Positions 1-26,900 are shown, counted from the first letter of the stretch. The stretch: 64,000 nucleotides of DNA from Schmidtea nova (GCA_044892505.1 CM097882.1:348378001-348442000); one strand, 5' to 3'. A program made the numbers and translations. Notes: generated from the letters alone by a model not told the origin.

Positions 1-225
1 ATTAAAAATGATTGAATAATCAGAGAAAAAAGTTAAAATTTCATTTTCATAAATGTAGTGTGTGAAAGCTTTCTATCCTTTTGCAATTTTATGATTATTT
101 TGTGCAGTGTTGTTTATTTAAATATGTAACTGTTGAAAAAAAGAATATTGGATATGAAAATGGATAAAGTATTGCAAGTGTTGATATATATATTGTAAAT
201 TTTAACGATTGATAAATTCTTTCAA

Positions 226-298
226 GGTTCGATGGTGTAGCGGTTATCACGTCTGCTTTACACGCAGAAGGTCCCCGGTTCGATCCCGGGTCGAACCA
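226..298 (+). tRNA. tRNA-Val-TAC: tRNA-Val(TAC)
   Basis: 73-nt cloverleaf: acceptor GGTTCGA/TCGAACC, anticodon arm TCTGC-TTTACAC-GCAGA, T-loop TTCGATC, discriminator A; T5 terminator follows. Confidence 0.96.
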
Positions 299-300
299 AA

Positions 301-305
301 TTTTT
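301..305 (+). terminator. Pol III terminator (T5) after tRNA-Val(TAC); representative of all TAC units
   Basis: TTTTT starting 3 nt after the discriminator. Confidence 0.8.
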
Positions 306-360
306 ATTGTAAATTGTTAAATCTTGTTTACTATGTTTCCATTGTTTACTAGTGTTATTT

Positions 361-374
361 TGTGTGTGTGTGTG
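361..374. repeat. (TG)7 microsatellite in the short spacer; representative, present in each unit
   Basis: tgtgtgtgtgtgtg. Confidence 0.9.
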
Positions 375-446
375 TTTTATTAGTAAATCAGATCAATTTA
401 TTTAGCTGAAAGTTGGTAACAAACGAAAATTTGAAAATATTTACAG

Positions 447-519
447 GGTTCGATGGTGTAGCGGTTATCACGTCTGCTTCACACGCAGAAGGTCCCCGGT
501 TCGATCCCGGGTCGAACCA
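447..519 (+). tRNA. tRNA-Val-CAC: tRNA-Val(CAC)
   Basis: Same cloverleaf, anticodon loop TTCACAC; T4 terminator follows. Confidence 0.95.
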
Positions 520-521
520 TA

Positions 522-525
522 TTTT
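522..525 (+). terminator. Pol III terminator (T4) after tRNA-Val(CAC); representative
   Basis: TTTT starting 3 nt after the discriminator. Confidence 0.7.
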
Positions 526-816
526 ATTAATTAGAAACTTCCTAATCTTGATTTTTTCTCAATGGAACACCTTTCTCATATATGTTACAATATTAAAAAT
601 GATTGAATAATCAGAGAAAAAAGTTAAAATTTCATTTTCATAAATGTAGTGTGTGAAAGCTTTCTATCCTTTTGCAATTTTATGATTATTTTGTGCAGTG
701 TTGTTTATTTAAATATGTAACTGTTGAAAAAAAGAATATTGGATATGAAAATGGATAAAGTATTGCAAGTGTTGATATATATATTGTAAATTTTAACGAT
801 TGATAAATTCTTTCAA

Positions 817-889
817 GGTTCGATGGTGTAGCGGTTATCACGTCTGCTTTACACGCAGAAGGTCCCCGGTTCGATCCCGGGTCGAACCA
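817..889 (+). tRNA. tRNA-Val-TAC: tRNA-Val(TAC)
   Basis: Identical to 226..298. Confidence 0.96.
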
Positions 890-1037
890 AATTTTTATTG
901 TAAATTGTTAAATCTTGTTTACTATGTTTCCATTGTTTACTAGTGTTATTTTGTGTGTGTGTGTGTTTTATTAGTAAATCAGATCAATTTATTTAGCTGA
1001 AAGTTGGTAACAAACGAAAATTTGAAAATATTTACAG

Positions 1038-1110
1038 GGTTCGATGGTGTAGCGGTTATCACGTCTGCTTCACACGCAGAAGGTCCCCGGTTCGATCCCG
1101 GGTCGAACCA
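1038..1110 (+). tRNA. tRNA-Val-CAC: tRNA-Val(CAC)
   Basis: Identical to 447..519. Confidence 0.95.
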
Positions 1111-1407
1111 TATTTTATTAATTAGAAACTTCCTAATCTTGATTTTTTCTCAATGGAACACCTTTCTCATATATGTTACAATATTAAAAATGATTGAATA
1201 ATCAGAGAAAAAAGTTAAAATTTCATTTTCATAAATGTAGTGTGTGAAAGCTTTCTATCCTTTTGCAATTTTATGATTATTTTGTGCAGTGTTGTTTATT
1301 TAAATATGTAACTGTTGAAAAAAAGAATATTGGATATGAAAATGGATAAAGTATTGCAAGTGTTGATATATATATTGTAAATTTTAACGATTGATAAATT
1401 CTTTCAA

Positions 1408-1416
1408 GGTTCGATG
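1408..1416 (+). pseudogene. 5' stub (nt 1-9) of tRNA-Val disrupted by copy 1
   Basis: GGTTCGATG at the expected 591-bp register, then element sequence. Confidence 0.9.
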
Positions 1417-4047
1417 ACTCAATCACCTGCTGCTCAGTCAACTGCTGCTGATGTGATGACTCAGTCTATTGGAAATCAGTCAACTGTGACGAAGAAATAT
1501 GAATTAGAAAACATTCTCAAGTATCAAATTTCCAGTTTGCAATGTTTTCAATCGATTTTGGATTATTTTTCGCAACTAAATGGTGGAAATCTCGCTACTG
1601 CCTCAGTTCTTTCTGATGCGAATGCAAGTCAACGGAGTTCTTTCGATCAAGGATCTAAAATTTCTCAAAACCAATCTGATAATATGCCACTTTCTTATGC
1701 TGATATTGAGACTAAATTCACTAAATCAAAGGATTTACTGATTGTCAAGCGCCTGGATTCATTGGAGTCTCAATTTATGAATATGGCTGAAAAGTTAGAT
1801 TATTTGGTTTCTTTTTTTAATGGCTCTGTTGATGATTTATCAGATTTTCCTAAAGTAAATGAAAATAATTTAAATAATAATCCTTTCAATAAAAATAAAG
1901 TTTTTGATATCAAAGATAAATTAATTGTAAATAATGTAGTTTTAGATAAATCAAATATTTCAGAATTTATTGAAAATAATATTGCTAAAATTCCTAATAG
2001 TTTAATTGATGTAAATAATAAAATGTGTAATTCAAATAATAAATTTCTAAATAACCCTAATAAAGAGAATGTTAAACATTTTAATAATCCCAAAGAAACA
2101 TCTTCAATTGATTTGACTAACGATAAAATTATGCCAAATGAAAACATAGAAATAATTATTAAAAATAATAAAAAATCTGTTAAAATTATAGAACCTAATA
2201 AAACAACTAAACAGAAGTATGATAAATTTGAATTTAAAAATCTGGTTCGTATTTTAACGAAAAGGGAACGCCAGAAAATCTTGAATGCCTTCCCTGCTTT
2301 AATACAACTAATTAAAAAGAAAGAATCACAGAGTAAATATTTTGAAATTAATAAATTTCTTTCGAGCAAAGATTTTAATGTGAATCACTTGAATTTAATT
2401 AATTTTGATTATTTTTTCTATAGAAATTGTAATCTTTGTGTATCTTTAAAATTGAACAACGCTCCTGTCATTTCATCAGCACCAAAACCTGTTGTTTTAA
2501 AAACTATTAAATTAATTGACCATAATATCGTCAAAATAAATTCTGAAATCCCTGACTTTGTTCGAGCTCCAATGTCAATTCGAAGATTTTTATTCAATCT
2601 TTCGCACGATCTTTCAAACACTGTTTCCATCAAGGATGAGAAACACAGGGGAAATAAAATAAATAACATTCTTACTTCAATGAAACATAAACAACAATTA
2701 CCAGATTATTTAATAAAATCAAACATTAAATACGAAAATGGTGAGTTCTTATTATTAGATTTGACTAACGATAAAATCAAATTGAACGACGATAATAACT
2801 TGATAAAATCAAATTTTTCTGAACTTACTAGAAGTCAGATTAAAAATCTTTACCATTCTTATCCTTCTCTTAAGGAAGTTTGTTTCGTTGAAAATCTTGA
2901 AACAAGATCATCATCCGTTAGTAAAATTATCGAATCTTTAAAGTTAATTAATGAATTTCCAAAAAATATCATTTTTAAAGAGGGTAAATTTTATCAGTCT
3001 GATAAAAGAACAATCTCACCTAGTAGTTCTCCTGACATAATGTTCAACCTTGGTCTTTTTAATTTAGCTAGTATGAGTAGAAAAGATTGTGAATTAAAAT
3101 CCATTTTAGAGAAGACTGGTTGTGACTTTAAAATAGTTGAAATAATATTCTACCTCAACTATTTAGGCTTGACTCAATCTTTAGAATTTTGCAAAAATCA
3201 AACTTATTCTGATTATGTGAGGAATTACGTCTGCAATTGCTGCTTGATAAACTCACTCTGTAGTATTGCTGATGTTGATTCGCTTTCATCTGAAGATTTT
3301 GAGGGTTGGGCGACCGAAATTGTTCAGAAAATCCCAGTTTCTTCCTATTACTTCAATAGCTGCCAGGAAAAGCTTTTAAAGCTGAAGCAATGGGACATTT
3401 CAACTAAAATCAAAAGAATCCATAACGTTATTTCACCTGAAATAATATCTTATTTAAATAACTTTCTTGACTCTGTAGACGTAAAATTTCCATCTAAGTC
3501 TCAACAACATAATATTCTAATTAAATTAATGAAAGCTATCAATGACATTAAAATTTTTGATGACATACACGGAAATAAAGCAAAAAGACTTGTTTACTTT
3601 TTGCTAAGAGATGCCAAGAAATATTTGAATAAAAATCAACGATTCAGATTATTTGAATCGAGCAATAAATATTGCACTTCAGAGATGGAGAATATAATTT
3701 CAGTAATAATTGAGAACCTTACCAAAGTTACTGACCATGAAGTTACTACTCCTGAAATCACAGTTGAAGAAACGCCAATTGAAATAACTTGTGATCCTGA
3801 ACCTATCGTCTTGATTAAGGAAATAAACTGTTTAAAATGTAACAATATCATCGAAAAATGCATTCTTGTTAGAGATGGAACAAACGTCAACATCTGTGAA
3901 AGCTGTCTATTTGACGCAATTACCTTTGAAAAGCCGATTCCTGAAGCTACTAATTCGGATATCGAAGAAAATATGGAAACAAATAGTAAGAAATCTTGTC
4001 CAAGACCTAGAAAAACAGACAAGAAAACATCAACCAAAGCAAAATGA
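1414..4047 (+). CDS. Retrotransposon ORF1, 877 aa, Asn/Lys-rich, C-terminal C-x2-C-x18-C-x2-C finger and basic tail
   Basis: Long ORF intact in all six copies; ATG overlaps tRNA nt 7-9; ends in TGA in frame with ORF2. Confidence 0.88.
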   Translation: MTQSPAAQSTAADVMTQSIGNQSTVTKKYELENILKYQISSLQCFQSILDYFSQLNGGNLATASVLSDANASQRSSFDQGSKISQNQSDNMPLSYADIETKFTKSKDLLIVKRLDSLESQFMNMAEKLDYLVSFFNGSVDDLSDFPKVNENNLNNNPFNKNKVFDIKDKLIVNNVVLDKSNISEFIENNIAKIPNSLIDVNNKMCNSNNKFLNNPNKENVKHFNNPKETSSIDLTNDKIMPNENIEIIIKNNKKSVKIIEPNKTTKQKYDKFEFKNLVRILTKRERQKILNAFPALIQLIKKKESQSKYFEINKFLSSKDFNVNHLNLINFDYFFYRNCNLCVSLKLNNAPVISSAPKPVVLKTIKLIDHNIVKINSEIPDFVRAPMSIRRFLFNLSHDLSNTVSIKDEKHRGNKINNILTSMKHKQQLPDYLIKSNIKYENGEFLLLDLTNDKIKLNDDNNLIKSNFSELTRSQIKNLYHSYPSLKEVCFVENLETRSSSVSKIIESLKLINEFPKNIIFKEGKFYQSDKRTISPSSSPDIMFNLGLFNLASMSRKDCELKSILEKTGCDFKIVEIIFYLNYLGLTQSLEFCKNQTYSDYVRNYVCNCCLINSLCSIADVDSLSSEDFEGWATEIVQKIPVSSYYFNSCQEKLLKLKQWDISTKIKRIHNVISPEIISYLNNFLDSVDVKFPSKSQQHNILIKLMKAINDIKIFDDIHGNKAKRLVYFLLRDAKKYLNKNQRFRLFESSNKYCTSEMENIISVIIENLTKVTDHEVTTPEITVEETPIEITCDPEPIVLIKEINCLKCNNIIEKCILVRDGTNVNICESCLFDAITFEKPIPEATNSDIEENMETNSKKSCPRPRKTDKKTSTKAK

Positions 4048-4053
4048 AGATGT

Positions 4054-7000
4054 GTGCCTGCATCAGCTCAATCGTCTGCCATTCCCTCTAATGAGACTGA
4101 TGCAGAGAGCACAACTAAAAATAATATTTCAACTATCGACAATCGTGATCCTGAAGTGTGGTTTTCTGATAATGATATTGATTGGTATCTTGAAAACCAC
4201 ATTGATAATCCAATGCATGGATATATTAAATGCTTTATAGTAAATATCATCTGTTCTAACATCACAGAAGATATTGTTGAAATTCCACCATCTATTAGCA
4301 ATGCTGAAATTGTATTTTGTCCACTCAACATTAACAATTCGCACTGGATTCTTTTTGTTTATAGTAAGAAAATGTTATCTTCTTACTTTATTGACCCAAT
4401 CCTTGCAAACAGACAAAAGCCAATCAATAAACAAATGGCTCAGAGAATTAACCTAAAACTGAATAGATTTTTTAATCTAAATATATCTGTGTCCCGACAT
4501 CCACACAAACATCTTGAATATCAAAATAACAGCTTTGATTGTGGCCCATTTACGTGTGCTTATGCTGTGATTATCAGTAAAGATTTGAACAGCTTTCCAA
4601 ATGGGTTCATAGAGAAAATTCGTACCAGTGTGCATGAAAATCAAAATCGTATGCAAATAACCGAATCCACCTTATTCGCTGGTACTAACTCCAAGATGGA
4701 CATGACCAAAATAAATATCAAGAAAGCCCTTGCAAAAAAGAAAGTCATCACCAACACCTCAGATATGACCAAAGTATTGAACACTCAAAAACCGTGTGTG
4801 TCATCAATAATTAGTAAATATTACGAAAGTAATTCTAAAATAACAGTCTTATCTGCCGAACTAACTTTAAACCTAATTGCACAAAATACCTCCTTCATAG
4901 CTGATAATGTCACTTTCAAGCAGTTCAAAGGAATCGATCATGTTATAAGTATCATTCCTAAATTTAACGATTGGTGTCTCTTTGTCTATTCGAATAAACT
5001 TGACAGGAGCTACATGTTCGACTTCAATTATCGAAACATTGATGAAAGGCTAATTGAAATTGGTGAAAAGATAACTGAATATCTGAATCAATTCACTCTT
5101 GTTTCTAAAATAAAATTCACACCTCATCATAGAATTTCTCATCCAACATTTCATTCTTACGATGATCAATATTTTGCAAGTTCTTTTATTGTATTTTTTG
5201 AGAAACTTGTCTTTGAAAGAATACTGGACAATGATAAGGTTTATGACTCATTAAGTGCTCTAAAATATCAGTCTTGTAAAGATCTTTCTCCTAGCCTAAG
5301 TTTCATTAATGGTAAAATATCCGACAAAATTATTGAGGAATATTTTGCTAGCCTAAACTTATCGACCAAATATATTCTTCTAAACACAACAATGTGTACT
5401 GCGCTTTCAGATGATTGCACTGAATACTTGAAAGACTTTGTAAACATTGAGTGCATGATGAAGGCTACTATAATCTTTGTAATCATTTCTCCTCCAAGAG
5501 CCAACGACTTGCTCATGGTTATTGATTACGACGCTGATGAGCACTATTTATTAAGCCCAGTCACTAATGACTTGTTCGTTATGACTGAAGGATTCTGCTA
5601 TAAATTACTAATTAAAATTAATGAGATTAGAGAGAGCACAGGACGTTCCTTGAAATCGCGTAATTGTCGACATGACGTTAAAGGTTCTGGCTTATTTAGT
5701 AGGTTATTAATCTGTGCCTTTATTAAATATTATGCATTTGACCGATCTCTAGAAAATATCAATCTTTATGAAATTGGCAAAATTATCTACTCACTTGTGC
5801 CATTAGTTGATAAAAATGATAATGCTGAGGAAGAAAGACGACTAAAATCAAAAGCTGTAAACTCTTTAAAACTAAATTTAAAACAGCGAATAGAAAAAGC
5901 CAATAATCTTATAATTTCACTTGAACACGCCAGTATTGATGAAATCATAAGTGGCATTCTTTCAAATATTCCTCGTCTTAAAGATTTGAACACCGATCAC
6001 ATTCGTACACCATATTTAGGTACTAAAATAGAAAAAGCTAGAAAATTCAAAAATTCCACTGAGTTTCTGTCAAACATGAAAAAGACTGTGTATAGGATTT
6101 TGGGTAACAACACAGAATCAATTGCACCTCCTTATCAGGAAATTATTGACACTTTCAGTCATCCTGATACATTACCTAGAAATTGGGAAAACATCTTAAA
6201 ATTCACTAAGAGTTCTAAATATAGTCTTGAATTAAATCCAATGACACCTAAAGAAATCCTTTCAAGTCTTTGCAAAGCTGACAACACTTCTCCAGGTCTT
6301 GATAATGTTTGTTATAAAGATCTTTTGTTATTAGACCCTGAATGTAAATTGCTAGCTTTTCTGTACAATAAAATCCTAAAATTAGACATTATTCCTACAA
6401 GTTGGAAATCATTTAAAACCATACTAATCCCCAAACCAGATAAAAATGGCCAATATCATAAAATATATTCTTGGCGACCAATTGCCTTATTATCTGTCAT
6501 TTACAAAGTCTTCGCTTCAGTTTTGGCAAATCGTCTAAGCTTATGGATAAGAAATAATTCCATGTTACACATTGGCCAAAAGGGTGGTTCGGAGTACGAA
6601 GGATGTATTGAACACAACTCTATTCTTTCTGCTATCGTCGAACATTCAAAATACAGCAAGTCTTCACCTTTAACGATAGCTTGGCTAGACATCAAAGATG
6701 CCTTCGGAAGTGTTCCACATGACTACATGTGGACACTGTTAAAACACATAAATGTTAGTGATAGGTTTGTAGGAATTTTAAAACTGCTCTATACTGATAC
6801 AAGCTCGTTTTACTGTTGCAATAAAATGCAGACACCGGATATTCCAATAAAGAAAGGAGTTAAACAAGGTTGTCCGATCTCAATGATATTGTTTGCAATA
6901 GCTATTAACCCAGTACTTGAGTCTATTAATCTATCAAACGTTAATCCTTTTACGATTGGAACATCTCCGGTACAGGTGTTGGCTTATGCGGATGATATCG

Positions 7001-8664
7001 CACTTATCGCGACAAATACCTCTGATCTGCAAATACTCATAAACGTTGCTGTAAACACCGCTAAAACAATTGGATTTGAATATCGTCCAGAAAAGTGCGC
7101 TTATATGCAATTCCCTAAAATAGAAACTGTAAGCGAGATTTCTGTCAACAACGTTCTTATCAAAAAGATTGCAACAAATGAATTTTACCAATACTTGGGA
7201 GTACCAATAGGTGACAATAATGATCAAAGTCCCTATGAAATTCTAAGCAAAGTAATTGAAGACACAAAGAAAATAGCAAATTCTGATCTTTACGGCTGGC
7301 AAAAACTTAAAGCGTATAAGGTCTTTCTGCATTCTCGCTTGATTTTTCCATTTAGAACTAGGGAAATCAAAACAAGTTCTTTAGCTGATTCGAGTAAAAA
7401 TTCAAAATTAAATGTAAATAATACGAGTATTTTGAGGAGTCATCTTAGAAAAATATTGCACTTGCCACACTACTCTGAGATTAGCTATTTTTATAATTCT
7501 ACTGAAAACGGCGGTGCAGGCTGCATAGACTTACTTGACGAGTATCATACACAGACAATCGTGTACTTTTTCCGTTTGTTAACATCAACGTGCGAATATT
7601 CGAAAAAGATAAATACTGACTCGCTTTTATTTGTCACAAGTCCGAGACTCGGAATCAAAAATCCAGTTCTTAAACAAAGTTTAGAATGGATAAATGGAAA
7701 AGAGAGCAAGAAAAACAACAGTGGTTGCAAAACTCGATTTTATCGGTTGCGATCATCCATTGCTTACTTTTCTAAAGTTCACAACATTAAATTGTTATTT
7801 GAAACAGTGAAAGGGAATCCTTCTATCCGTATAACCACTACACTTAAGGGAACACGTATATTATTACCAACATTAAGAAAAGCCTTGTCAATGATTTTAC
7901 ATTCAGCTCTCCAGGATTCGTATCTCGAGAAATGGGAGAATAGCAATCATAATAATCTGCTTGTATCTGCGATAAAACTCTGTCCACTTGTCAACAAGCT
8001 TATTTTCCGCAGTGATTTGACAGAATTTGAATGGAGATTCGTCCATCGAGCAAGAACGAATACATTATCAATATTTGCGAAGCCATATAAAACTGGCGAA
8101 AATCGTCTTTGTCGTAGATGTAAGCTTGAAGACGAGACTTTATCACACGTTCTTCAAACTTGTAAAATGAACAAATCTTTGGCAACTAGTCGACATAACG
8201 CTTGCTTAGAAAAAATAAAAAGCGAGTTGAAAGATCCAAACTTGTTAGTTGTTGCGGATCATAAATGTTCCCTAGTACCGACATCAACTGAACGCGTTGA
8301 TTTAATAATAACCAATAATGATAAAAAGACCATATTATTGGTAGACATGAAATGCCCAATCGATTCGGTGCCCAACTTTGACTTGGCTGATAAAAAAAAC
8401 ATAGAAAAGTATGATAAACTAAAATCAGAAATTAAAATAGCCAAACCCGATTATAAAGTTGAGTTGTTTACCTGCATCATAGGCTCATTAGGATCCATTG
8501 AAATTAAAACACCTGATCTTTTAGTAAAAATGGGAGTAAAAGAAAATAAAGTAAAACGTCTGATGAAAGAGTGTGCAATTAGCAATATTGCGCACTCGGC
8601 CAAAATTTGGTACTTTCATACCAATGGCTTTCTTCCAGATAATATAAGACAAACTTGTAAATAA
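4054..8664 (+). CDS. Retrotransposon ORF2: Ulp1-like protease (1 intact + 2 degenerate repeats), reverse transcriptase, CCHC knuckle, restriction-like endonuclease
   Basis: HW (H97), D114, QNNSFDCG (C163); RT motifs SPGLD, WRPIALL, LDIKDAFGSV, GVKQGCP, YADD (nt 6985), YLGV; CRRC-x8-H-x4-C, RHN, RVD, D-M-K, KY. The frame is open from 4048; the track start is GTG and the first ATG is at 4213. Confidence 0.95.
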   Translation: MPASAQSSAIPSNETDAESTTKNNISTIDNRDPEVWFSDNDIDWYLENHIDNPMHGYIKCFIVNIICSNITEDIVEIPPSISNAEIVFCPLNINNSHWILFVYSKKMLSSYFIDPILANRQKPINKQMAQRINLKLNRFFNLNISVSRHPHKHLEYQNNSFDCGPFTCAYAVIISKDLNSFPNGFIEKIRTSVHENQNRMQITESTLFAGTNSKMDMTKINIKKALAKKKVITNTSDMTKVLNTQKPCVSSIISKYYESNSKITVLSAELTLNLIAQNTSFIADNVTFKQFKGIDHVISIIPKFNDWCLFVYSNKLDRSYMFDFNYRNIDERLIEIGEKITEYLNQFTLVSKIKFTPHHRISHPTFHSYDDQYFASSFIVFFEKLVFERILDNDKVYDSLSALKYQSCKDLSPSLSFINGKISDKIIEEYFASLNLSTKYILLNTTMCTALSDDCTEYLKDFVNIECMMKATIIFVIISPPRANDLLMVIDYDADEHYLLSPVTNDLFVMTEGFCYKLLIKINEIRESTGRSLKSRNCRHDVKGSGLFSRLLICAFIKYYAFDRSLENINLYEIGKIIYSLVPLVDKNDNAEEERRLKSKAVNSLKLNLKQRIEKANNLIISLEHASIDEIISGILSNIPRLKDLNTDHIRTPYLGTKIEKARKFKNSTEFLSNMKKTVYRILGNNTESIAPPYQEIIDTFSHPDTLPRNWENILKFTKSSKYSLELNPMTPKEILSSLCKADNTSPGLDNVCYKDLLLLDPECKLLAFLYNKILKLDIIPTSWKSFKTILIPKPDKNGQYHKIYSWRPIALLSVIYKVFASVLANRLSLWIRNNSMLHIGQKGGSEYEGCIEHNSILSAIVEHSKYSKSSPLTIAWLDIKDAFGSVPHDYMWTLLKHINVSDRFVGILKLLYTDTSSFYCCNKMQTPDIPIKKGVKQGCPISMILFAIAINPVLESINLSNVNPFTIGTSPVQVLAYADDIALIATNTSDLQILINVAVNTAKTIGFEYRPEKCAYMQFPKIETVSEISVNNVLIKKIATNEFYQYLGVPIGDNNDQSPYEILSKVIEDTKKIANSDLYGWQKLKAYKVFLHSRLIFPFRTREIKTSSLADSSKNSKLNVNNTSILRSHLRKILHLPHYSEISYFYNSTENGGAGCIDLLDEYHTQTIVYFFRLLTSTCEYSKKINTDSLLFVTSPRLGIKNPVLKQSLEWINGKESKKNNSGCKTRFYRLRSSIAYFSKVHNIKLLFETVKGNPSIRITTTLKGTRILLPTLRKALSMILHSALQDSYLEKWENSNHNNLLVSAIKLCPLVNKLIFRSDLTEFEWRFVHRARTNTLSIFAKPYKTGENRLCRRCKLEDETLSHVLQTCKMNKSLATSRHNACLEKIKSELKDPNLLVVADHKCSLVPTSTERVDLIITNNDKKTILLVDMKCPIDSVPNFDLADKKNIEKYDKLKSEIKIAKPDYKVELFTCIIGSLGSIEIKTPDLLVKMGVKENKVKRLMKECAISNIAHSAKIWYFHTNGFLPDNIRQTCK
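4058..4105 (+). promoter_or_regulatory. Stem-loop 10 nt downstream of the ORF1 UGA; candidate readthrough/recoding stimulator (same in all six copies)
   Basis: CTGCATCAG (4058-4066) pairs with CTGATGCAG (4097-4105); CTCA (4067-4070) pairs with TGAG (4092-4095) across one bulged A. Confidence 0.55.
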
Positions 8665-9007
8665 ATAATTATATATATATATAAATATTTGCTTTTTAAA
8701 CTCTGTAAATAAAATTTAAAGTAAATATTTTGTAAAGTAATTTTTGTATTAAATATCAAATCTTTTTAATCTGATAAATTGTCTTTGAGAGTTATTAAAT
8801 TGGGAGACCAAGTATTCTGCAACGTATGTCACTTATTCTAGACTTATCAACTTCAAAATAATACAGTCGCAAAGCTGGATGACGAAATCCAAAGAACCAG
8901 AAACTTCCATTCAGATTGAACAATTATATTTTGACTGTGATTGTTTAGGCACTAATCCATGTTGATTAGATAATCTGTAAAAAAAATATGTCAAACTTGT
9001 TATATTT

Positions 9008-9013
9008 AATAAA
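9008..9013 (+). promoter_or_regulatory. AATAAA polyadenylation-like signal at the element 3' end; representative
   Basis: AATAAA 6 nt before the 3' junction in all six copies; no genomic poly(A) follows. Confidence 0.45.
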
Positions 9014-9019
9014 TGTTTA

Positions 9020-9074
9020 TTATCACGTCTGCTTTACACGCAGAAGGTCCCCGGTTCGATCCCGGGTCGAACCA
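9020..9074 (+). pseudogene. 3' remnant (nt 19-73) of tRNA-Val(TAC) after copy 1
   Basis: TTATCACG...CGAACCA; nt 10-18 missing. Confidence 0.92.
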
Positions 9075-11374: not shown

Positions 11375-14005
11375 ACTCAATCACCTGCTGCTCAGTCAAC
11401 TGCTGCTGATGTAATGACTCAGTCTATTGCAAATCAGTCAACTGTGACGAAGCAATATGAATTAGAAAACATTCTCAAATATCAAATTTCCAGTTTGCAA
11501 TGTTTTCAATCGATTTTAGATTATTTTTCTCAACTAAATGGTGGAAATCTCGCTACTGCCTCAGTTCTATCTGATGCGAATGCAAGTCAACGGAGTTCTT
11601 TCGATCAAGGATCTAAAATTTCTCCAAACCAATCTGATAATATGCCACTTTCTTATGCTGATATTGAGACTAAATTCACTAAATCAAAGGATTTACTGAT
11701 TGTCAAGCGCCTGGATTCATTGGAGTCTCAATTTATGAATATGGCTGAAAAGTTAGATTATTTGGTTTCTTTTTTTAATGGCTCTGTTGATGATTTATCA
11801 GATTTTCCTAAAGTAAATGAAAATAATTTAAATAATAATCCTTTTAATAAAAATAAAGTTTTTGATATCAAAGATAAATTAATTGTAAATAATGTAGTTT
11901 TAGATAAATCAAATATTTCAGAATTTATTGAAAATAATATTGCTAAAATTCCTAATAGTTTAATTGATGTAAATAATAAAATGTGTAATTCAAATAATAA
12001 ATTTCTAAATAACCCTAATAAAGAGAATGTTAAACATTTTAATAATCCCAAAGATACATCTTCAATTGATTTGACTAACGATAAAATTATGCCAAATGAA
12101 AACATAGAAATAATTATTAAAAATAATAAAAAATCTGTTAAAATTATAGAACCTTATAAAACAACTAAAGAGAAGTATGATAAATTTGAATTTAAAAGTC
12201 TGGTTCGTATTTTAACGAAAAGGGAACGCCAGAAAATCTTGAATGCCTTCCCTGCTTTAATACAACTAATTAAAAAGAAAGAATCACAGAGTAAATATTT
12301 TGAAATTAATAAATTTCTTTCGAGCAAAGATTTTAATGTGAATCACTTGAATTTAAATAATTTTGATTATTTTTTCTATAGAAATTGTAATCTTTGTGTA
12401 TCTTTAAAATTGAACAACGCTCCTGTCATTTTATCAGCACCAAAACCTGTTGTTTTAAAAACTATTAAATTAATTGACCATAATATCGTCAAAATAAATT
12501 CTGAAATCCCTGACTTTGTTCGAGCTCCAATGTCAATTCGAAGATTTTTATTCAATCTTTCGCACGATCTTTCAAACACTGTTTCCATCAAGGATGAGAA
12601 ACACAGGGGAAATAAAATAAATAACATTCTTACTTCAATGAAACATAAACAACAATTACCAGATTATTTAATAAAATCAAACATTAAATACGAAAATGGT
12701 GAGTTCTTATTATTAGATTTGACTAACGATAAAATCAAATTGAACGACGATAATAACTTGATAAAATCAAATTTTTCTGAACTTACTAGAAGTCAGATTA
12801 AAAATCTTTACTATTCTTATCCTTCTCTTAAGGAAGTTTGTTTCGTTGAAAATCTTGAAACAAGATCATCATCCGTTAGTAAAATTATCGAATCTTTAAA
12901 GTTAATTAATGAATTTCCAAAAAATATCATTTTTAAAGAGGGTAAATTTTATCAGTCTGATAAAAGAACAATCTCACCTAGTAGTTCTCCTGACATAATG
13001 TTCAACCTTGGTCTTTTTAATTTGGCTAGTATGAGTAGAAAAGATTGTGAATTAAAATCCATTTTAGAGAAGACTGGTTGTGACTTTAAAATAGTTGAAA
13101 TAATATTCTACCTCAACTATTTAGGCTTGACTCAATCTTTAGAATTTTGCAAAAATCAAACTTATTCTGATTATGTGAGGAATTACGTCTGTAATTGCTG
13201 CTTGATAAACTCACTCTGTAGTATTGCTGATGTTGATTCGCTTTCATCTGAAGATTTTGAGGGTTGGGCGACCGAAATTGTTCAGAAAATCCCAGTTTCT
13301 TCCTATTACTTCAATAGCTGCCAGGAAAAGCTTTTAAAGCTGAAGCAATGGGACATTTCAACTAAAATCAAAAGAATCCATAACGTTATTTCACCTGAAA
13401 TAATATCTTATTTAAATAACTTTCTTGACTCTGTAGACGTAAAATTTCCATCTAAGTCTCAACAACATAATATTCTAATTAAATTAATGAAAGCTATCAA
13501 TGACATTAAAATTTTTGATGACATACACGGAAATAAAGCAAAAAGACTTGTTTACTTTTTGCTAAGAGATGCCAAGAAATATTTGAATAAAAATCAACGA
13601 TTCAGATTATTTGAATCGAGCAATAAATATTGCACTTCAGAGATGGAGAATATAATTTCAGTAATAATTGAGAACCTTACCAAAGTTACTGACCATGAAG
13701 TTACTACTCCTGAAATCACAGTTGAAGAAACGCCAATTGAAATAACTTGTGATCCTGAACCTATCGTCTTGATTAAGGAAATAAACTGTTTAAAATGTAA
13801 CAATATCATCGAAAAATGCATTCTTGTTAGAGATGGAACAAACGTCAACATCTGTGAAAGCTGTCTATTTGACGCAATTACCTTTGAAAAGCCGATTCCT
13901 GAAGCTACTAATTCGGATACCGAAGAAAATATGGAAACAAATAGTAAGAAATCTTGTCCAAGACCTAGAAAAACAGACAAGAAAACATCAACCAAAGCGA
14001 AATGA
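11372..14005 (+). CDS. ORF1 of copy 2 (877 aa)
   Basis: Intact, near-identical to copy 1. Confidence 0.88.
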   Translation: MTQSPAAQSTAADVMTQSIANQSTVTKQYELENILKYQISSLQCFQSILDYFSQLNGGNLATASVLSDANASQRSSFDQGSKISPNQSDNMPLSYADIETKFTKSKDLLIVKRLDSLESQFMNMAEKLDYLVSFFNGSVDDLSDFPKVNENNLNNNPFNKNKVFDIKDKLIVNNVVLDKSNISEFIENNIAKIPNSLIDVNNKMCNSNNKFLNNPNKENVKHFNNPKDTSSIDLTNDKIMPNENIEIIIKNNKKSVKIIEPYKTTKEKYDKFEFKSLVRILTKRERQKILNAFPALIQLIKKKESQSKYFEINKFLSSKDFNVNHLNLNNFDYFFYRNCNLCVSLKLNNAPVILSAPKPVVLKTIKLIDHNIVKINSEIPDFVRAPMSIRRFLFNLSHDLSNTVSIKDEKHRGNKINNILTSMKHKQQLPDYLIKSNIKYENGEFLLLDLTNDKIKLNDDNNLIKSNFSELTRSQIKNLYYSYPSLKEVCFVENLETRSSSVSKIIESLKLINEFPKNIIFKEGKFYQSDKRTISPSSSPDIMFNLGLFNLASMSRKDCELKSILEKTGCDFKIVEIIFYLNYLGLTQSLEFCKNQTYSDYVRNYVCNCCLINSLCSIADVDSLSSEDFEGWATEIVQKIPVSSYYFNSCQEKLLKLKQWDISTKIKRIHNVISPEIISYLNNFLDSVDVKFPSKSQQHNILIKLMKAINDIKIFDDIHGNKAKRLVYFLLRDAKKYLNKNQRFRLFESSNKYCTSEMENIISVIIENLTKVTDHEVTTPEITVEETPIEITCDPEPIVLIKEINCLKCNNIIEKCILVRDGTNVNICESCLFDAITFEKPIPEATNSDTEENMETNSKKSCPRPRKTDKKTSTKAK

Positions 14006-17000
14006 AGATGTGTGCCTGCATCAGCTCAATCGTCTGCCATTCCCTCTAATGAGACTGATGCAGAGAGCACAACTAAAAATAATATTTCAACTATCGACAA
14101 TCGTGATCCTGAAGTGTGGTTTTCTGATAATGATATTGATTGGTATCTTGAAAACCACATTGATAATCCAATGCATGGATATATTAAATGCTTTATAGTA
14201 AATATCATCTGTTCTAACATCACAGAAGATATTGTTGAAATTCCACCATCTATTAGCAATGCTGAAATTGTATTTTGTCCACTCAACATTAACAATTCGC
14301 ACTGGATTCTTTTTGTTTATAGTAAGAAAATGTTATCTTCTTACTTTATTGACCCAATCCTTGCAAACAGACAAAAGCCAATCAATAAACAAATGGCTCA
14401 GAGAATTAACCTAAAACTGAATAGATTTTTTAATCTAAATATATCTGTGTCCCGACATCCACACAAACATCTTGAATATCAAAATAACAGCTTTGATTGT
14501 GGCCCATTTACGTGTGCTTATGCTGTGATTATCAGTAAAGATTTGAACAGCTTTCCAAATGGGTTCATAGAGAAAATTCGTACCAGTGTGCATGAAAATC
14601 AAAATCGTATGCAAATAACCGAATCCACCTTATTCGCTGGTACTAACTCCAAGATGGACATGACCAAAATAAATATCAAGAAAGCCCTTGCAAAAAAGAA
14701 AGTCATCACCAACACCTCAGATATGACCAAAGTATTGAACACTCAAAAACCGTGTGTGTCATCAATAATTAGTAAATATTACGAAAGTAATTCTAAAATA
14801 ACAGTCTTATCTGCCGAACTAACTTTAAACCTAATTGCACAAAATACCTCCTTCATAGCTGATAATGTCACTTTCAAGCAGTTCAAAGGAATCGATCATG
14901 TTATAAGTATCATTCCTAAATTTAACGATTGGTGTCTCTTTGTCTATTCGAATAAACTTGACAGGAGCTACATGTTCGACTTCAATTATCGAAACATTGA
15001 TGAAAGGCTAATTGAAATTGGTGAAAAGATAACTGAATATCTGAATCAATTCACTCTTGTTTCTAAAATAAAATTCACACCTCATCATAGAATTTCTCAT
15101 CCAACATTTCATTCTTACGATGATCAATATTTTGCAAGTTCTTTTATTGTATTTTTTGAGAAACTTGTCTTTGAAAGAATACTGGACAATGATAAGGTTT
15201 ATGACTCATTAAGTGCTCTAAAATATCAGTCTTGTAAAGATCTTTCTCCTAGCCTAAGTTTCATTAATGGTAAAATATCCGACAAAATTATTGAGGAATA
15301 TTTTGCTAGCCTAAACTTATCGACCAAATATATTCTTCTAAACACAACAATGTGTACTGCGCTTTCAGATGATTGCACTGAATACTTGAAAGACTTTGTA
15401 AACATTGAGTGCATGATGAAGGCTACTATAATCTTTGTAATCATTTCTCCTCCAAGAGCCAACGACTTGCTCATGGTTATTGATTACGACGCTGATGAGC
15501 ACTATTTATTAAGCCCAGTCACTAATGACTTGTTCGTTATGACTGAAGGATTCTGCTATAAATTACTAATTAAAATTAATGAGATTAGAGAGAGCACAGG
15601 ACGTTCCTTGAAATCGCGTAATTGTCGACATGACGTTAAAGGTTCTGGCTTATTTAGTAGGTTATTAATCTGTGCCTTTATTAAATATTATGCATTTGAC
15701 CGATCTCTAGAAAATATCAATCTTCATGAAATTGGCAAAATTATCTACTCACTTGTGCCATTAGTTGATAAAAATGATAATGCTGAGGAAGAAAGACGAC
15801 TAAAATCAAAAGCTGTAAACTCTTTAAAACTAAATTTAAAACAGCGAATAGAAAAAGCCAATAATCTTATAATTTCACTTGAACACGCCAGTATTGATGA
15901 AATCATAAGTGGCATTCTTTCAAATATTCCTCGTCTTAAAGATTTGAACACCGATCACATTCGTACACCATATTTAGGTACTAAAATAGAAAAAGCTAGA
16001 AAATTCAAAAATTCCACTGAGTTTCTGTCAAACATGAAAAAGACTGTGTATAGGATTTTGGGTAACAACACAGAATCAATTGCACCTCCTTATCAGGAAA
16101 TTATTGACACTTTCAGTCATCCTGATACATTACCTAGAAATTGGGAAAACATCTTAAAATTCACTAAGAGTTCTAAATATAGTCTTGAATTAAATCCAAT
16201 GACACCTAAAGAAATCCTTTCAAGTCTTTGCAAAGCTGACAACACTTCTCCAGGTCTTGATAATGTTTGTTATAAAGATCTTTTGTTATTAGACCCTGAA
16301 TGTAAATTGCTAGCTTTTCTGTACAATAAAATCCTAAAATTAGACATTATTCCTACAAGTTGGAAATCATTTAAAACCATACTAATCCCCAAACCAGATA
16401 AAAATGGCCAATATCATAAAATATATTCTTGGCGACCAATTGCCTTATTATCTGTCATTTACAAAGTCTTCGCTTCAGTTTTGGCAAATCGTCTAAGCTT
16501 ATGGATAAGAAATAATTCCATGTTACACATTGGCCAAAAGGGTGGTTCGGAGTACGAAGGATGTATTGAACACAACTCTATTCTTTCTGCTATCGTCGAA
16601 CATTCAAAATACAGCAAGTCTTCACCTTTAACGATAGCTTGGCTAGACATCAAAGATGCCTTCGGAAGTGTTCCACATGACTACATGTGGACACTGTTAA
16701 AACACATAAATGTTAGTGATAGGTTTGTAGGAATTTTAAAACTGCTCTATACTGATACAAGCTCGTTTTATTGTTGCAATAAAATGCAGACACCGGATAT
16801 TCCAATAAAGAAAGGAGTTAAACAAGGTTGTCCGATCTCAATGATATTGTTTGCAATAGCTATTAACCCAGTACTTGAGTCTATTAATCTATCAAACGTC
16901 AATCCTTTTACGATTGGAACATCTCCGGTACAGGTTTTGGCTTATGCGGATGATATCGCACTTATCGCGACAAATACCTCTGATCTGCAAATACTCATAA

Positions 17001-21331: not shown

Positions 21332-23962
21332 ACTCAATCACCTGCTGCTCAGTCAACTGCTGCTGATGTAATGACTCAGTCTATTGCAAATCAGTCAACT
21401 GTGACGAAGCAATATGAATTAGAAAACATTCTCAAATATCAAATTTCCAGTTTGCAATGTTTTCAATCGATTTTAGATTATTTTTCTCAACTAAATGGTG
21501 GAAATCTCGCTACTGCCTCAGTTCTATCTGATGCGAATGCAAGTCAACGGAGTTCTTTCGATCAAGGATCTAAAATTTCTCCAAACCAATCTGATAATAT
21601 GCCACTTTCTTATGCTGATATTGAGACTAAATTCACTAAATCAAAGGATTTACTTATTGTCAAGCGCCTGGATTCATTGGAGTCTCAATTTATGAATATG
21701 GCTGAAAAGTTAGATTATTTGGTTTCTTTGTTTAATGGCTCTGTTGATGATTTATCAGATTTTCCTAAAGTAAATGAAAATAATTTAAATAATAATCCTT
21801 TCAATAAAAATAAAGTTTTTGATATCAAAGATAAATTAATTGTAAATAATGTAGTTTTAGATAAATCAAATATTTCAGAATTTATTGAAAATAATATTGC
21901 TAAAATTCCTAATAGTTTAATTGATGTAAATAATAAAATGTGTAATTCAAATAATAAATTTCTAAATAACCCTAATAAAGAGAATGTTAAACATTTTAAT
22001 AATCCCAAAGATACATCTTCAATTGATTTGACTAACGATAAAATTATGCCAAATGAAAACATAGAAATAATTATTAAAAATAATAAAAAATCTGTTAAAA
22101 TTATAGAACTTTATAAAACAACTAAACAGAAGTATGATAAATTTGAATTTAAAAGTCTGGTTCGTATTTTAACGAAAAGGGAACGCCAGAAAATCTTGAA
22201 TGCCTTCCCTGCTTTAATACAACTAATTAAAAAGAAAGAATCACAGAGTAAATATTTTGAAATTAATAAATTTCTTTCGAGCAAAGATTTTAATGTGAAT
22301 CACTTGAATTTAATTAATTTTGATTATTTTTTCTATAGAAATTGTAATCTTTGTGTATCTTTAAAATTGAACAACGCTCCTGTCATTTCATCAGCACCAA
22401 AACCTGTTGTTTTAAAAACTATTAAATTAATTGACCATAATATCGTCAAAATAAATTCTGAAATCCCTGACTTTGTTCGAGCTCCAATGTCAATTCGAAG
22501 ATTTTTATTCAATCTTTCGCACGATCTTTCAAACACTGTTTCCATCAAGGATGAGAAACACAGGGGAAATAAAATAAATAACATTCTTACTTCAATGAAA
22601 CATAAACAACAATTACCAGATTATTTAATAAAATCAAACATTAAATACGAAAATGGTGAGTTCTTATTATTAGATTTGACTAACGATAAAATCAAATTGA
22701 ACGACGATAATAACTTGATAAAATCAAATTTTTCTGAACTTACTAGAAGTCAGATTAAAAATCTTTACCATTCTTATCCTTCTCTTAAGGAAGTTTGTTT
22801 CGTTGAAAATCTTGAAACAAGATCATCATCCGTTAGTAAAATTATCGAATCTTTAAAGTTAATTAATGAATTTCCAAAAAATATCATTTTTAAAGAGGGT
22901 AAATTTTATCAGTCTGATAAAAGAACAATCTCACCTAGTAGTTCTCCTGACATAATGTTCAACCTTGGTCTTTTTAATTTAGCTAGTATGAGTAGAAAAG
23001 ATTGTGAATTAAAATCCATTTTAGAGAAGACTGGTTGTGACTTTAAAATAGTTGAAATAATATTCTACCTCAACTATTTAGGCTTGACTCAATCTTTAGA
23101 ATTTTGCAAAAATCAAACTTATTCTGATTATGTGAGGAATTACGTCTGCAATTGCTGCTTGATAAACTCACTCTGTAGTATTGCTGATGTTGATTCGCTT
23201 TCATCTGAAGATTTTGAGGGTTGGGCGACCGAAATTGTTCAGAAAATCCCAGTTTCTTCCTATTACTTCAATAGCTGCCAGGAAAAGCTTTTAAAGCTGA
23301 AGCAATGGGACATTTCAACTAAAATCAAAAGAATCCATAACGTTATTTCACCTGAAATAATATCTTATTTAAATAACTTTCTTGACTCTGTAGACGTAAA
23401 ATTTCCATCTAAGTCTCAACAACATAATATTCTAATTAAATTAATGAAAGCTATCAATGACATTAAAATTTTTGATGACATACACGGAAATAAAGCAAAA
23501 AGACTTGTTTACTTTTTGCTAAGAGATGCCAAGAAATATTTGAATAAAAATCAACGATTCAGATTATTTGAATCGAGCAATAAATATTGCACTTTAGAGA
23601 TGGAGAATATAATTTCAGTAATAATTGAGAACCTTACCAAAGTTACTGACCATGAAGTTACTACTCCTGAAATCACAGTTGAAGAAACGCCAATTGAAAT
23701 AACTTGTGATCCTGAACCTATCGTCTTGATTAAGGAAATAAACTGTTTAAAATGCAACAATATCATCGAAAAATGCATTCTTGTTAGAGATGGAACAAAC
23801 GTCAACATCTGTGAAAGCTGTCTATTTGACGCAATTACCTTTGAAAAGCCGATTCCTGAAGCTACTAATTCGGATATCGAAGAAAATATAGAAACAAATT
23901 GTAAGAAATCTTGTCCAAGACCTAGAAAAACAGACAAGAAAACATCAACCAAAGCAAAATGA
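21329..23962 (+). CDS. ORF1 of copy 3 (877 aa)
   Basis: Intact. Confidence 0.88.
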   Translation: MTQSPAAQSTAADVMTQSIANQSTVTKQYELENILKYQISSLQCFQSILDYFSQLNGGNLATASVLSDANASQRSSFDQGSKISPNQSDNMPLSYADIETKFTKSKDLLIVKRLDSLESQFMNMAEKLDYLVSLFNGSVDDLSDFPKVNENNLNNNPFNKNKVFDIKDKLIVNNVVLDKSNISEFIENNIAKIPNSLIDVNNKMCNSNNKFLNNPNKENVKHFNNPKDTSSIDLTNDKIMPNENIEIIIKNNKKSVKIIELYKTTKQKYDKFEFKSLVRILTKRERQKILNAFPALIQLIKKKESQSKYFEINKFLSSKDFNVNHLNLINFDYFFYRNCNLCVSLKLNNAPVISSAPKPVVLKTIKLIDHNIVKINSEIPDFVRAPMSIRRFLFNLSHDLSNTVSIKDEKHRGNKINNILTSMKHKQQLPDYLIKSNIKYENGEFLLLDLTNDKIKLNDDNNLIKSNFSELTRSQIKNLYHSYPSLKEVCFVENLETRSSSVSKIIESLKLINEFPKNIIFKEGKFYQSDKRTISPSSSPDIMFNLGLFNLASMSRKDCELKSILEKTGCDFKIVEIIFYLNYLGLTQSLEFCKNQTYSDYVRNYVCNCCLINSLCSIADVDSLSSEDFEGWATEIVQKIPVSSYYFNSCQEKLLKLKQWDISTKIKRIHNVISPEIISYLNNFLDSVDVKFPSKSQQHNILIKLMKAINDIKIFDDIHGNKAKRLVYFLLRDAKKYLNKNQRFRLFESSNKYCTLEMENIISVIIENLTKVTDHEVTTPEITVEETPIEITCDPEPIVLIKEINCLKCNNIIEKCILVRDGTNVNICESCLFDAITFEKPIPEATNSDIEENIETNCKKSCPRPRKTDKKTSTKAK

Positions 23963-26900
23963 AGATGTGTGCCTGCATCAGCTCAATCGTCTGCCATTCC
24001 CTCTAATGAGACTGATGCAGAGAGCACAACTAAAAATAATATTTCAACTATCGACAATCGTGATCCTGAAGTGTGGTTTTCTGATAATGATATTGATTGG
24101 TATCTTGAAAACCACATTGATAATCCAATGCATGGATATATTAAATGCTTTATAGTAAATATCATCTGTTCTAACATCACAGAAGATATTGTTGAAATTC
24201 CACCATCTATTAGCAATGCTGAAATTGTATTTTGTCCACTCAACATTAACAATTCGCACTGGATTCTTTTTGTTTATAGTAAGAAAATGTTATCTTCTTA
24301 CTTTATTGACCCAATCCTTGCAAACAGACAAAAGCCAATCAATAAACAAATGGCTCAGAGAATTAATCTAAAACTGAATAGATTTTTTAATCTAAATATA
24401 TCTGTGTCCCGACATCCACACAAACATCTTGAATATCAGAATAACAGCTTTGACTGTGGCCCATTTACGTGTGCTTATGCTGTGATTATCAGTAAAGATT
24501 TGAACAGCTTTCCAAATGGGTTCATAGAGAAAATTCGTACCAGTGTGCATGAAAATCAAAATCGTATGCAAATAACCGAATCCACCTTATTCGCTGGTAC
24601 TAACTCCAAGATGGACATGACCAAAATAAATATCAAGAAAGCCCTTGCAAAAAAGAAAGTCATCACCAACACCTCAGATATGACCAAAGTATTGAACACT
24701 CAAAAACCGTGTGTGTCATCAATAATTAGTAAATATTACGAAAGTAATTCTAAAATAACAGTCTTATCTGCCGAACTAACTTTAAACCTAATTGCACAAA
24801 ATACCTCCTTCATAGCTGATAATGTCACTTTCAAGCAGTTCAAAGGAATCGATCATGTTATAAGTATCATTCCTAAATTTAACGATTGGTGTCTCTTTGT
24901 CTATTCGAATAAACTTGACAGGAGCTACATGTTCGACTTCAATTATCGAAACATTGATGAAAGGCTAATTGAAATTGGTGAAAAGATAACTGAATATCTG
25001 AATCAATTCACTCTTGTTTCTAAAATAAAATTCACACCTCATCATAGAATTTCTCATCCAACATTTCATTCTTACGATGATCAATATTTTGCAAGTTCTT
25101 TTATTGTATTTTTTGAGAAACTTGTCTTTGAAAGAATACTGGACAATGATAAGGTTTATGACTCATTAAGTGCTCTAAAATATCAGTCTTGTAAAGATCT
25201 TTCTCCTAGCCTAAGTTTCATTAATGGTAAAATATCCGACAAAATTATTGAGGAATATTTTGCTAGCCTAAACTTATCGACCAAATATATTCTTCTAAAC
25301 ACAACAATGTGTACTGCGCTTTCAGATGATTGCACTGAATACTTGAAAGACTTTGTAAACATTGAGTGCATGATGAAGGCTACTATAATCTTTGTAATCA
25401 TTTCTCCTCCAAGAGCCAACGACTTGCTCATGGTTATTGATTACGACGCTGATGAGCACTATTTATTAAGCCCAGTCACTAATGACTTGTTCGTTATGAC
25501 TGAAGGATTCTGCTATAAATTACTAATTAAAATTAATGAGATTAGAGAGAGCACAGGACGTTCCTTGAAATCGCGTAATTGTCGACATGACGTTAAAGGT
25601 TCTGGCTTATTTAGTAGGTTATTAATCTGTGCCTTTATTAAATATTATGCATTTGACCGATCTCTAGAAAATATCAATCTTCATGAAATTGGCAAAATTA
25701 TCTACTCACTTGTGCCATTGGTTGATAAAAATGATAATGCTGAGGAAGAAAGACGACTAAAATCAAAAGCTGTAAACTCTTTAAAACTAAATTTAAAACA
25801 GCGAATAGAAAAAGCCAATAATCTTATAATTTCACTTGAACACGCCAGTATTGATGAAATCATAAGTGGCATTCTTTCAAATATTCCTCGTCTTAAAGAT
25901 TTGAACACCGATCACATTCGTACACCATATTTAGGTACTAAAATAGAAAAAGCTAGAAAATTCAAAAATTCCACTGAGTTTCTGTCAAACATGAAAAAGA
26001 CTGTGTATAGGATTTTGGGTAACAACACAGAATCAATTGCACCTCCTTATCAGGAAATTATTGACACTTTCAGTCATCCTGATACATTACCTAGAAATTG
26101 GGAAAACATCTTAAAATTCACTAAGAGTTCTAAATATAGTCTTGAATTAAATCCAATGACACCTAAAGAAATCCTTTCAAGTCTTTGCAAAGCTGACAAC
26201 ACTTCTCCAGGTCTTGATAATGTTTGTTATAAAGATCTTTTGTTATTAGACCCTGAATGTAAATTGCTAGCTTTTCTGTACAATAAAATCCTAAAATTAG
26301 ACATTATTCCTACAAGTTGGAAATCATTTAAAACGATACTAATCCCCAAACCAGATAAAAATGGCCAATATCATAAAATATATTCTTGGCGACCAATTGC
26401 CTTATTATCTGTCATTTACAAAGTCTTCGCTTCAGTTTTGGCAAATCGTCTAAGCTTATGGATAAGAAATAATTCCATGTTACACATTGGCCAAAAGGGT
26501 GGTTCGGAGTACGAAGGATGTATTGAACACAACTCTATTCTTTCTGCTATCGTCGAACATTCAAAATACAGCAAGTCTTCACCTTTAACGATAGCTTGGC
26601 TAGACATCAAAGATGCCTTCGGAAGTGTTCCACATGACTACATGTGGACACTGTTAAAACACATAAATGTTAGTGATAGGTTTGTAGGAATTTTAAAACT
26701 GCTCTATACTGATACAAGCTCGTTTTACTGTTGCAATAAAATGCAGACACCGGATATTCCAATAAAGAAAGGAGTTAAACAAGGTTGTCCGATCTCAATG
26801 ATATTGTTTGCAATAGCTATTAACCCAGTACTTGAGTCTATTAATCTATCAAACGTTAATCCTTTTACGATTGGAACATCTCCGGTACAGGTGTTGGCTT

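Follow-up and report, generated by a model that had tools for sequence, protein, structure and literature searches.

A tRNA-Val-targeting retrotransposon and the junction of its two reading frames

We analyzed a 64,000-nt stretch of the Schmidtea nova genome (GCA_044892505.1, CM097882.1:348378001-348442000; here the window, with positions counted from its first nucleotide) that carries 56 intact tRNA-Val genes in tandem, alternating between TAC and CAC types. The array is broken up by six copies of a 7.6-kb non-LTR retrotransposon (one without long terminal repeats) of the restriction-like endonuclease (RLE) type. Each copy has an 877-aa open reading frame (ORF1) and then a 1538-aa frame (ORF2), and our subject is the junction between them, a UGA stop codon followed by an RNA hairpin. 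All six copies have the 5' junction after tRNA-Val nucleotide 9 and the 3' junction near nucleotide 19-20, and at each insertion the target tRNA loses about 10 nt (nucleotides 10-18/19, the box A region). By its sequence the element is probably a NeSL-clade, LIN25-like RLE non-LTR retrotransposon: reverse transcriptase (RT) is followed by a CCHC finger and the RLE, and insertion is site-specific, into a multicopy RNA gene. The likeness of the 3' end to that of planarian LIN25_SM, which points to a probable planarian host, concerns an AT-rich 40 nt and was judged by eye only.

A sequence-only reading of this DNA had claimed that ORF1 and ORF2 are one frame split by a single UGA, and this holds. 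The TGA at 4045 is the sole TGA among the codons from 1414 to 8661, the frame stays open from 4048 to 8664, the GTG codon at 4054 is 880 codons from 1414, and ORF1, the UGA and ORF2 joined come to 2416 codons (877+1+1538). Counted from the stop, the first in-frame Met is M56 (M54 from the GTG); its ATG, at 4213, lies downstream of the WFSD segment, and no in-frame AUG lies ahead of the protease Trp motif. That a start at this ATG would truncate the protease, as had also been claimed, agrees with the coordinates and with the alignment of W38: this residue, which matches yeast Ulp1 at its Trp motif (E 0.001), precedes the first Met, and a start at M56 would take it away. The same motif opens the protease alignment that has been published for NeSL. 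Its Trp lines the substrate tunnel of the protease. Variant codons in ORF2 among the copies are 14 synonymous to 5 non-synonymous, where a synonymous fraction of about 0.21 is expected; ORF2 is therefore maintained as a protein, under purifying selection. In ORF1 the corresponding numbers are 12 and 17.

The hairpin follows directly. A stem of 9+4 bp starting 10 nt past the UGA had been described, and folding recovers it, with 4058-4070 paired to 4092-4105. The region 4045-4125 has a minimum free energy of -25.4 kcal/mol (z -3.95), which none of 200 shuffles equaled, and among 377 70-nt windows across the element the junction fold has the lowest energy and the second-best z. When the first six bases past the stop (4048-4053) are masked, which mimics a terminating ribosome, a basal extension forms at 4054-4057:4109-4112 with p 0.99; in free RNA the extension is 4051-4057:4107-4113, with p 0.94. 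The spacer between UGA and stem is thus 9-10 nt for the core or 6 nt in the extended register, in line with the 6-9 nt or so that characterize readthrough cassettes. A perfect 9-bp helix alone is not rare, the element having six helices of 9-10 bp; what is distinctive about the junction is the G+C-rich extended stem together with its conservation in relatives. A second hairpin, at 4157-4201 and 110 nt past the stop, spans the WFSD codons and has 10 perfect pairs (-22 kcal/mol, z -3.9); we set it aside, as the residues of its 3' arm differ by eye in relatives.

The stop and stem were said to be identical in all six copies, and so they are, although this carries little weight. The copies are 99.5-100% identical (0-36 nt differences over 7251 coding nt), with 48 variable codons in 2417, and fewer than one change is expected in the 61 nt of the junction; identity there is therefore no evidence of selection. 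The copies fall into three haplotypes, and copies 3-6 (21329-62350) differ by 0-3 nt, so little as to suggest either transposition in the very recent past or unequal crossing-over within the array.

Table 1. Coordinates of the element's features in the first copy, and of the junctions in the other five
Feature	Position	Strand	Remarks
5' remnant of target tRNA-Val gene, nt 1-9	1408..1416	+	last 3 bases are the ORF1 ATG
ORF1, 877 aa, Asn/Lys/Ile-rich, Cys cluster near C-terminus	1414..4047	+	ATG 1414 to TGA 4045-4047
ORF1 Cys motif C806-x2-C-x6-C-x11-C-x2-C831	3829..3906	+	possible C4 zinc site, not CCHH
Sole in-frame UGA, separating ORF1 from ORF2	4045..4047	+	context AAA-UGA-A
ORF2 frame, 1538 aa	4048..8664	+	Ulp1-like protease, apparent degenerate protease-like repeats (by eye), RT, CCHC, endonuclease
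GTG codon, 6 nt past stop	4054..4056	+	paired at stem base; aligned with the called start of nine homologs
Stem-loop	4054..4112	+	core 9 bp (4058-4066:4097-4105) plus 4 bp (4067-4070:4092-4095)
Ulp1/C48 protease domain (aa 35-181)	4150..4590	+	W38, H99, D116, Q159, C165; E 6.5e-7
Ala211-Gly212 at relatives' Gly-Gly(-Gly) position	4678..4683	+	candidate self-cleavage site (inferred)
Reverse transcriptase, RVT_1	6427..7206	+	E 1.8e-29
CCHC finger (C1355-C1372) and RLE core (R1416-D1418, D1433-x-K1435)	8110..8421	+	invariant columns
3' untranslated region (UTR)	8665..9019	+	last ~40 nt resemble LIN25_SM 3' end (by eye)
3' remnant of target tRNA-Val gene, from nt 19-20	9020..9074	+	
Copy 2 junction (UGA and stem)	14003..14070	+	
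Copy 3 junction (UGA and stem)	23960..24027	+	
Copy 4 junction (UGA and stem)	34731..34798	+	
Copy 5 junction (UGA and stem)	42917..42984	+	
Copy 6 junction (UGA and stem)	57381..57448	+	

ORF1 itself has no detectable relatives. We found none at E<=1 among the best 8000 candidates of near length, a capped and so weak search, no match among 757 shorter candidates, no Pfam family (only DUF2102, at E 0.067), and nothing usable in Atlas, where there was one lead at 0.76. Its Cys motif lies 46 residues upstream of the stop, and no His occurs beyond residue 775. NeSL-1 fingers are CCHH. The motif is not CCHH, and the proposal that readthrough would place an ORF1 zinc finger directly ahead of the protease as in NeSL-1 is a loose comparison. 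The ORF1 ATG overlaps tRNA-Val nucleotides 7-9, which would leave the element without a 5' UTR unless translation begins at Met15 (1456); the 11-nt motif found at 1414 is repeated at 1456 with one change (window 1408-1470). Two stretches within 4800-5800 (ORF2 aa about 250-580) look by eye like degenerate Ulp1 repeats without catalytic residues. Elsewhere the array has irregularities (28935-29438, 39350-40286 and about 47890): a 222-bp unit is repeated 2.3 times, a single intact tRNA lies between copies 4 and 5, and the flank of copy 5 is a CAC-type tRNA remnant carrying a one-base insertion.

The hairpin in related ORF2 proteins

ORF2 as a query gave 43 matches of 845-2692 aa, ten of them close, and phmmer with the first 618 ORF2 residues gave 58. 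From 66 proteins we chose by eye 26 family-like N-termini and scanned them for the stem arms. Nine carry arms (P0001-4, P0006, P0046, P0047, P0051 and P0055); the other 17 start later, are distant, or are without arms. P0097 was excluded from the counts, its register being ambiguous. The nine begin M-[PH]-[AT]-[STP]-[ADV], aligned to the GTG codon of the window, and the footprint of the 3' arm, [TSIA]-[DG]-[AV]-[EDN], comes nine codons later in seven of them, which share the same spacing between arms, and four to five codons later in two. The loop is therefore 4, 5 or 9 codons long, with the offset of the stem from the ORF2 start constant. Where full length, the nine homologs are 33-52% identical, and identities within the arm-bearing rows are 33-53%.

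Pairing in the relatives can be read from their peptides: in six of the nine core pairs both bases sit at first or second codon positions, which the amino acids fix if Ser is TCN. Over ten sequences, 57 of 60 such codon-determined pair cells can pair, three of them as G-U. Two pairs have implied changes on both sides, a compensatory pattern seen in peptides, not DNA: U-A to C-G in P0006 and P0047 (Ser/Asp to Pro/Gly), and G-C to A-U in P0055 (Ala/Ala to Thr/Val). Covariation in homologs, a check that the sequence-only reading had proposed, thus came out in favor of the stem. Substitutions in the arms keep pairing in 13 of 15 cases, compared with 40 of 152 random swaps (a null that ignores mutational closeness), and at fixed spacing a 9-pair match occurs at 1 in 150 random positions per protein. 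Across the six equally spaced sequences the arms show identities of 0.72 and 0.58 and the two residues that follow 1.0, compared with 0.21 for the loop and 0.11 for what comes after. Position 5 is Ala, Asp or Val, whose codons share only the first G, and the partners of the GUG and the C after it, Ser/Cys-Thr codons, are kept in nine of the ten sequences. This pattern agrees better with constraint on the RNA than with constraint on the protein, and the hairpin at this AUG-less, in-frame ORF1/ORF2 junction is real and apparently clade-wide.

An RT tree of 28 rows (P0023 was left out because of a split match) contains a 10-row clade (100/97) made up of the window, seven arm-bearing relatives, P0007, which has a late start, and P0005, which shows no arms. 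The last of these also is without the first of the two stretches that look like degenerate Ulp1 repeats. No named R5/LIN protein is among the ORF2 matches, and the RT clade consists of unnamed relatives only. P0009, in which a helicase C-terminal domain (PF00271) is attached to the RT part, looks like the product of a chimeric contig. None of the nine homologs is called from further upstream, whereas in the other two frames of ORF1 12-54% of positions meet a start before a stop; this lends weak support to a nearby in-frame stop in the relatives as well.

How ORF2 might be translated

We favor, with modest confidence, structure-stimulated UGA readthrough as the best explanation of the junction. 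The element would be transcribed as one RNA, and most ribosomes would end at the UGA and release the ORF1 protein (ORF1p). A minority would be held up by the hairpin at the mRNA entry channel, 6-10 nt past the stop, and these delayed ribosomes would put an amino acid at the UGA, giving a 2416-aa ORF1-protease-RT-RLE polyprotein. As with gammaretroviral gag-pol, this would keep RT in short supply relative to ORF1p. The first domain past the stop is the Ulp1-like protease, which may then cut behind itself at a Gly-Gly-type site and free the RT-endonuclease. Readthrough, the protein ratio and self-cleavage are each things that we only infer.

Ulp1-family enzymes cut after Gly-Gly. A Gly-Gly lies 38-52 residues past the catalytic Cys in 19 of 28 sequences, compared with 2 of 90 background tiles, and several other sequences have G-x-G there. 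Self-cleavage at such a site may release RT-RLE from an ORF1-protease fusion, which fits a polyprotein without requiring readthrough, and a flexible linker would explain the glycines too. More tentatively still, a whole clade of site-specific RLE non-LTR elements could independently have taken up the gag-pol strategy, combining hairpin readthrough with Gly-Gly self-cleavage by a Ulp1-like protease, although we regard this as doubtful.

The junction resembles published readthrough signals in several respects. (Papers cited by PMC number are represented here by excerpts, and statements drawn from them hold for those excerpts.) Readthrough spacers are 6-9 nt: MuLV 8, VEEV 8-9, furovirus 7, benyvirus 9 and SEPN1 6 (PMC3159437). 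A at positions -1 and -2 of the stop is a reported stimulator (PMC3159437), and the window's UGA has both. Within the window, an in-frame downstream ORF without a usable AUG lies behind one stop; the stop context is UGA-AGA and not the UGA-CUA or UGA-CGG of readthrough cassettes. No -1 slippery heptamer was found in 3851-4110. A host code with UGA as a sense codon is unlikely, since the 2416 codons contain one TGA and 17 TGG.

Several points weigh against readthrough. The base at +4 is A, not C, and the reviewed non-LTR cases (SART1, with its downstream structure, and L1) use reinitiation (PMC10275272, PMC5972666, PMC3894237). We chose the arm-bearing set, 9 of 26 N-termini, by eye; the relatives are known as proteins only, and their stems are back-inferred from peptides with Ser taken as TCN. 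A scan of genome contigs for the relatives' DNA found four loci with RT matches of 28-31% and no significant Ulp1. Three of the 60 pair cells (in P0004, P0051 and P0046) cannot pair, and the pairing counts, which have residues and ancestry in common, are not independent. If the best of 24 offsets is taken, 109 of 200 random trials give at least 8 pairs and 22 of 200 give 9; such a test is too permissive, and we rejected it. Individually, then, matches are improbable only at fixed spacing, and the two short-loop homologs rest on homology. P0005 lies inside the RT clade and is without arms. No fused ORF1-ORF2 form occurs among the close relatives in the 43 ORF2 matches; among the 58 phmmer matches, the few that lie deep in a protein are weak (E 1e-5 or worse) and SENP-like by eye. 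A start-callable codon sits at one aligned position in all nine relatives, as initiation would also predict. Lastly, where the cut is proposed the window reads AG instead of GG.

The four loci from the contig scan, titled as bacterial metagenome-assembled genomes, carry RLE-type RT fragments of 28-31% identity and are probably eukaryotic contigs that were binned in.

The most serious alternative, which we think unlikely, is termination-reinitiation at GUG 4054 (or AUG in relatives), helped by the structure as in SART1 and yielding a separate ORF2 protein that begins M-P-A-S; the proposal of readthrough is partly supported, and the better supported of the two. That all nine arm-bearing relatives are called from the GUG-aligned codon, that homology begins there, and that the ORF2 matches include no fused form are what reinitiation would lead one to expect. 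Gene callers write M for GTG starts. SART1 needs RNA structure downstream of its ORF1 stop, and ORF2 of L1 reinitiates unconventionally (PMC10275272, PMC5972666, PMC3894237). However, the start here is a GUG paired within the stem (p 0.94-0.99). Because the codons of the invariant Thr and Ser/Cys can pair with the GUG and its following C, pairing inside the stem can account for a conserved callable start without initiation; in the folding model it would also predict GUG rather than AUG at 4054 and bury the codon in the stem. Furthermore, an initiating ribosome would have to melt the 5' arm, and folding from 4063 on loses the stem. In the excerpted literature, reinitiation after long ORFs usually uses an out-of-frame and often overlapping start; in the element, the AUG that overlaps the stop does not share the frame of ORF2.

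That AUG, at 4044, overlaps the UGA and encodes a 15-aa peptide. The 15-codon ORF that begins at this AUGA ends in UAAUG 4089-4093, which opens a 49-codon ORF (span 4044-4240), and this chain of out-of-frame overlaps is probably due to chance. We rejected both the AUGA and the UAAUG as ORF2 starts: they give short peptides only, which are not kept in the relatives' peptides.

The hairpin could instead be real but serve another step, such as ribonucleoprotein assembly, RNA stability or processing, or internal ribosome entry, with ORF2 started otherwise. Covariation indicates structure and not function, the stem in free RNA reaches to within 3 nt of the stop, and P0005 seems to be without it. 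We nevertheless consider this distinctly unlikely, as the hairpin here directly follows an in-frame stop and in all nine relatives sits at the N-terminus of ORF2, where a recoding signal is predicted to be, and the loop varies in length whereas the offset of the stem from the ORF2 start does not.

It is improbable that ORF2 comes from an RNA of its own or a processed one, either by cis-splicing across the stop or by trans-splicing of a flatworm spliced leader that supplies the AUG. Flatworm leaders do end in AUG and can supply starts (PMC9851317), and by eye a branch-point-like CTAAT lies about 15 nt ahead of CAG 4103-4105. However, from the stop to the first Met there are seven AGs, of which the only ones in frame are two GAG (4095 and 4107), both CAG being out of frame, and splicing leaves the covariation of the two arms unexplained.

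Two further explanations we regard as highly improbable. Decoding of the UGA as selenocysteine, with the hairpin as a redefinition element, would recall SEPN1, in which, according to the excerpts, a stem likewise follows the UGA at 6 nt; but the UGA site is a linker and not a catalytic position, and no selenocysteine insertion sequence (SECIS) was found in Rfam at E<=1 in window 1-11500, where all 12 matches were tRNA, although a divergent SECIS could escape. The stop could also have come from a recent nonsense mutation, or from an error of assembly, in an element with a single ORF, and have spread as the array was duplicated. The near-identity of the copies and the single protein generally encoded by Utopia relatives would suit this, but each of the three haplotypes carries the stop, most variants in ORF2 are synonymous, and the relatives at 33-52% identity also begin at this point, with no fused form among the close matches.

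ORF2 translation in non-LTR retrotransposons has been described as an open question (PMC3894237), and the routes named in reviews are reinitiation (SART1, L1), 2A skipping, internal ribosome entry site-like entry and frameshifting (HeT-A) (PMC10275272, PMC5972666, PMC5009743, PMC3894237). The literature searched, which left the primary R5, SART1 and NeSL-1 papers and the Repbase entries outside, contains no report of readthrough in non-LTR elements, whether in general or in work on R5/LIN/NeSL organization, and the excerpts of PMC7650587, PMC5678591 and PMC2790886 have nothing on the R5 junction. The R5 authors may already have remarked on the frame. If readthrough does occur, it would be a further route to ORF2, otherwise known from retroviruses and RNA viruses, contained in a cassette of about 70 nt; LINE-type elements would gain a new mechanism of ORF2 translation and, should self-cleavage occur as well, the NeSL-clade protease a substrate. 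The conserved Gly-Gly site suggests a testable job for that protease. Where only ORF2 is annotated in these site-specific elements, themselves candidate tools for gene insertion, the true protein may be missed. Even under reinitiation, a conserved hairpin at an AUG-less ORF2 start would remain of interest.

Comparison with known elements and recoding signals

NeSL-1 is a single ORF. Like the element, NeSL-1 and Utopia-1_TSP of nematodes have a Ulp1-like protease ahead of RT, zinc finger and RLE, and their protease alignment starts at the Trp motif noted above. In contrast, the targets of NeSL-1 and Utopia are SL1 or U2 genes, with Utopia generally coding for one protein, whereas the element has two ORFs and targets tRNA-Val, with an 877-aa ORF1 and a stop preceding the protease and apparent degenerate repeats following it. 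Compared with NeSL proper, the element shares the N-terminal Ulp1-like protease and lacks the spliced-leader target and the single ORF.

R5 has two ORFs. LIN25_SM and the R5/LIN lineage resemble the element in having RT, CCHC and RLE and in being inserted inside tRNA genes (PMC4640811). LIN25_SM differs in its target, tRNA-Glu at nucleotide 5, compared with tRNA-Val (TAC/CAC) and a 3' junction at nucleotide 19-20 (PMC4640811); tRNA-Val is not among the targets in the excerpts of that paper and has no occurrence in its 10 supplements.

The viral readthrough systems (alphaviruses, furoviruses and benyviruses, and gag-pol of MuLV) also have an in-frame stop with a 3' stem 6-10 nt behind it, and share with the element a loop that varies, changes that compensate each other in the stem, A at both -1 and -2, and a polymerase downstream (PMC3159437, PMC5009743). 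They differ in that the element has UGA-A instead of UGA-C and a simple stem-loop instead of a pseudoknot, is a non-LTR element, and is known here from its sequence.

Lastly, SART1 is, like the element, a bicistronic non-LTR retrotransposon with no spacer between its ORFs and with RNA structure downstream of the ORF1 stop (PMC10275272, PMC5972666, PMC3894237). The excerpts describe in SART1 an overlapping UAAUG whose AUG opens ORF2. The element has the downstream structure without an overlapping stop-start that opens ORF2: its overlapping AUG is out of frame, and its two ORFs share one frame.

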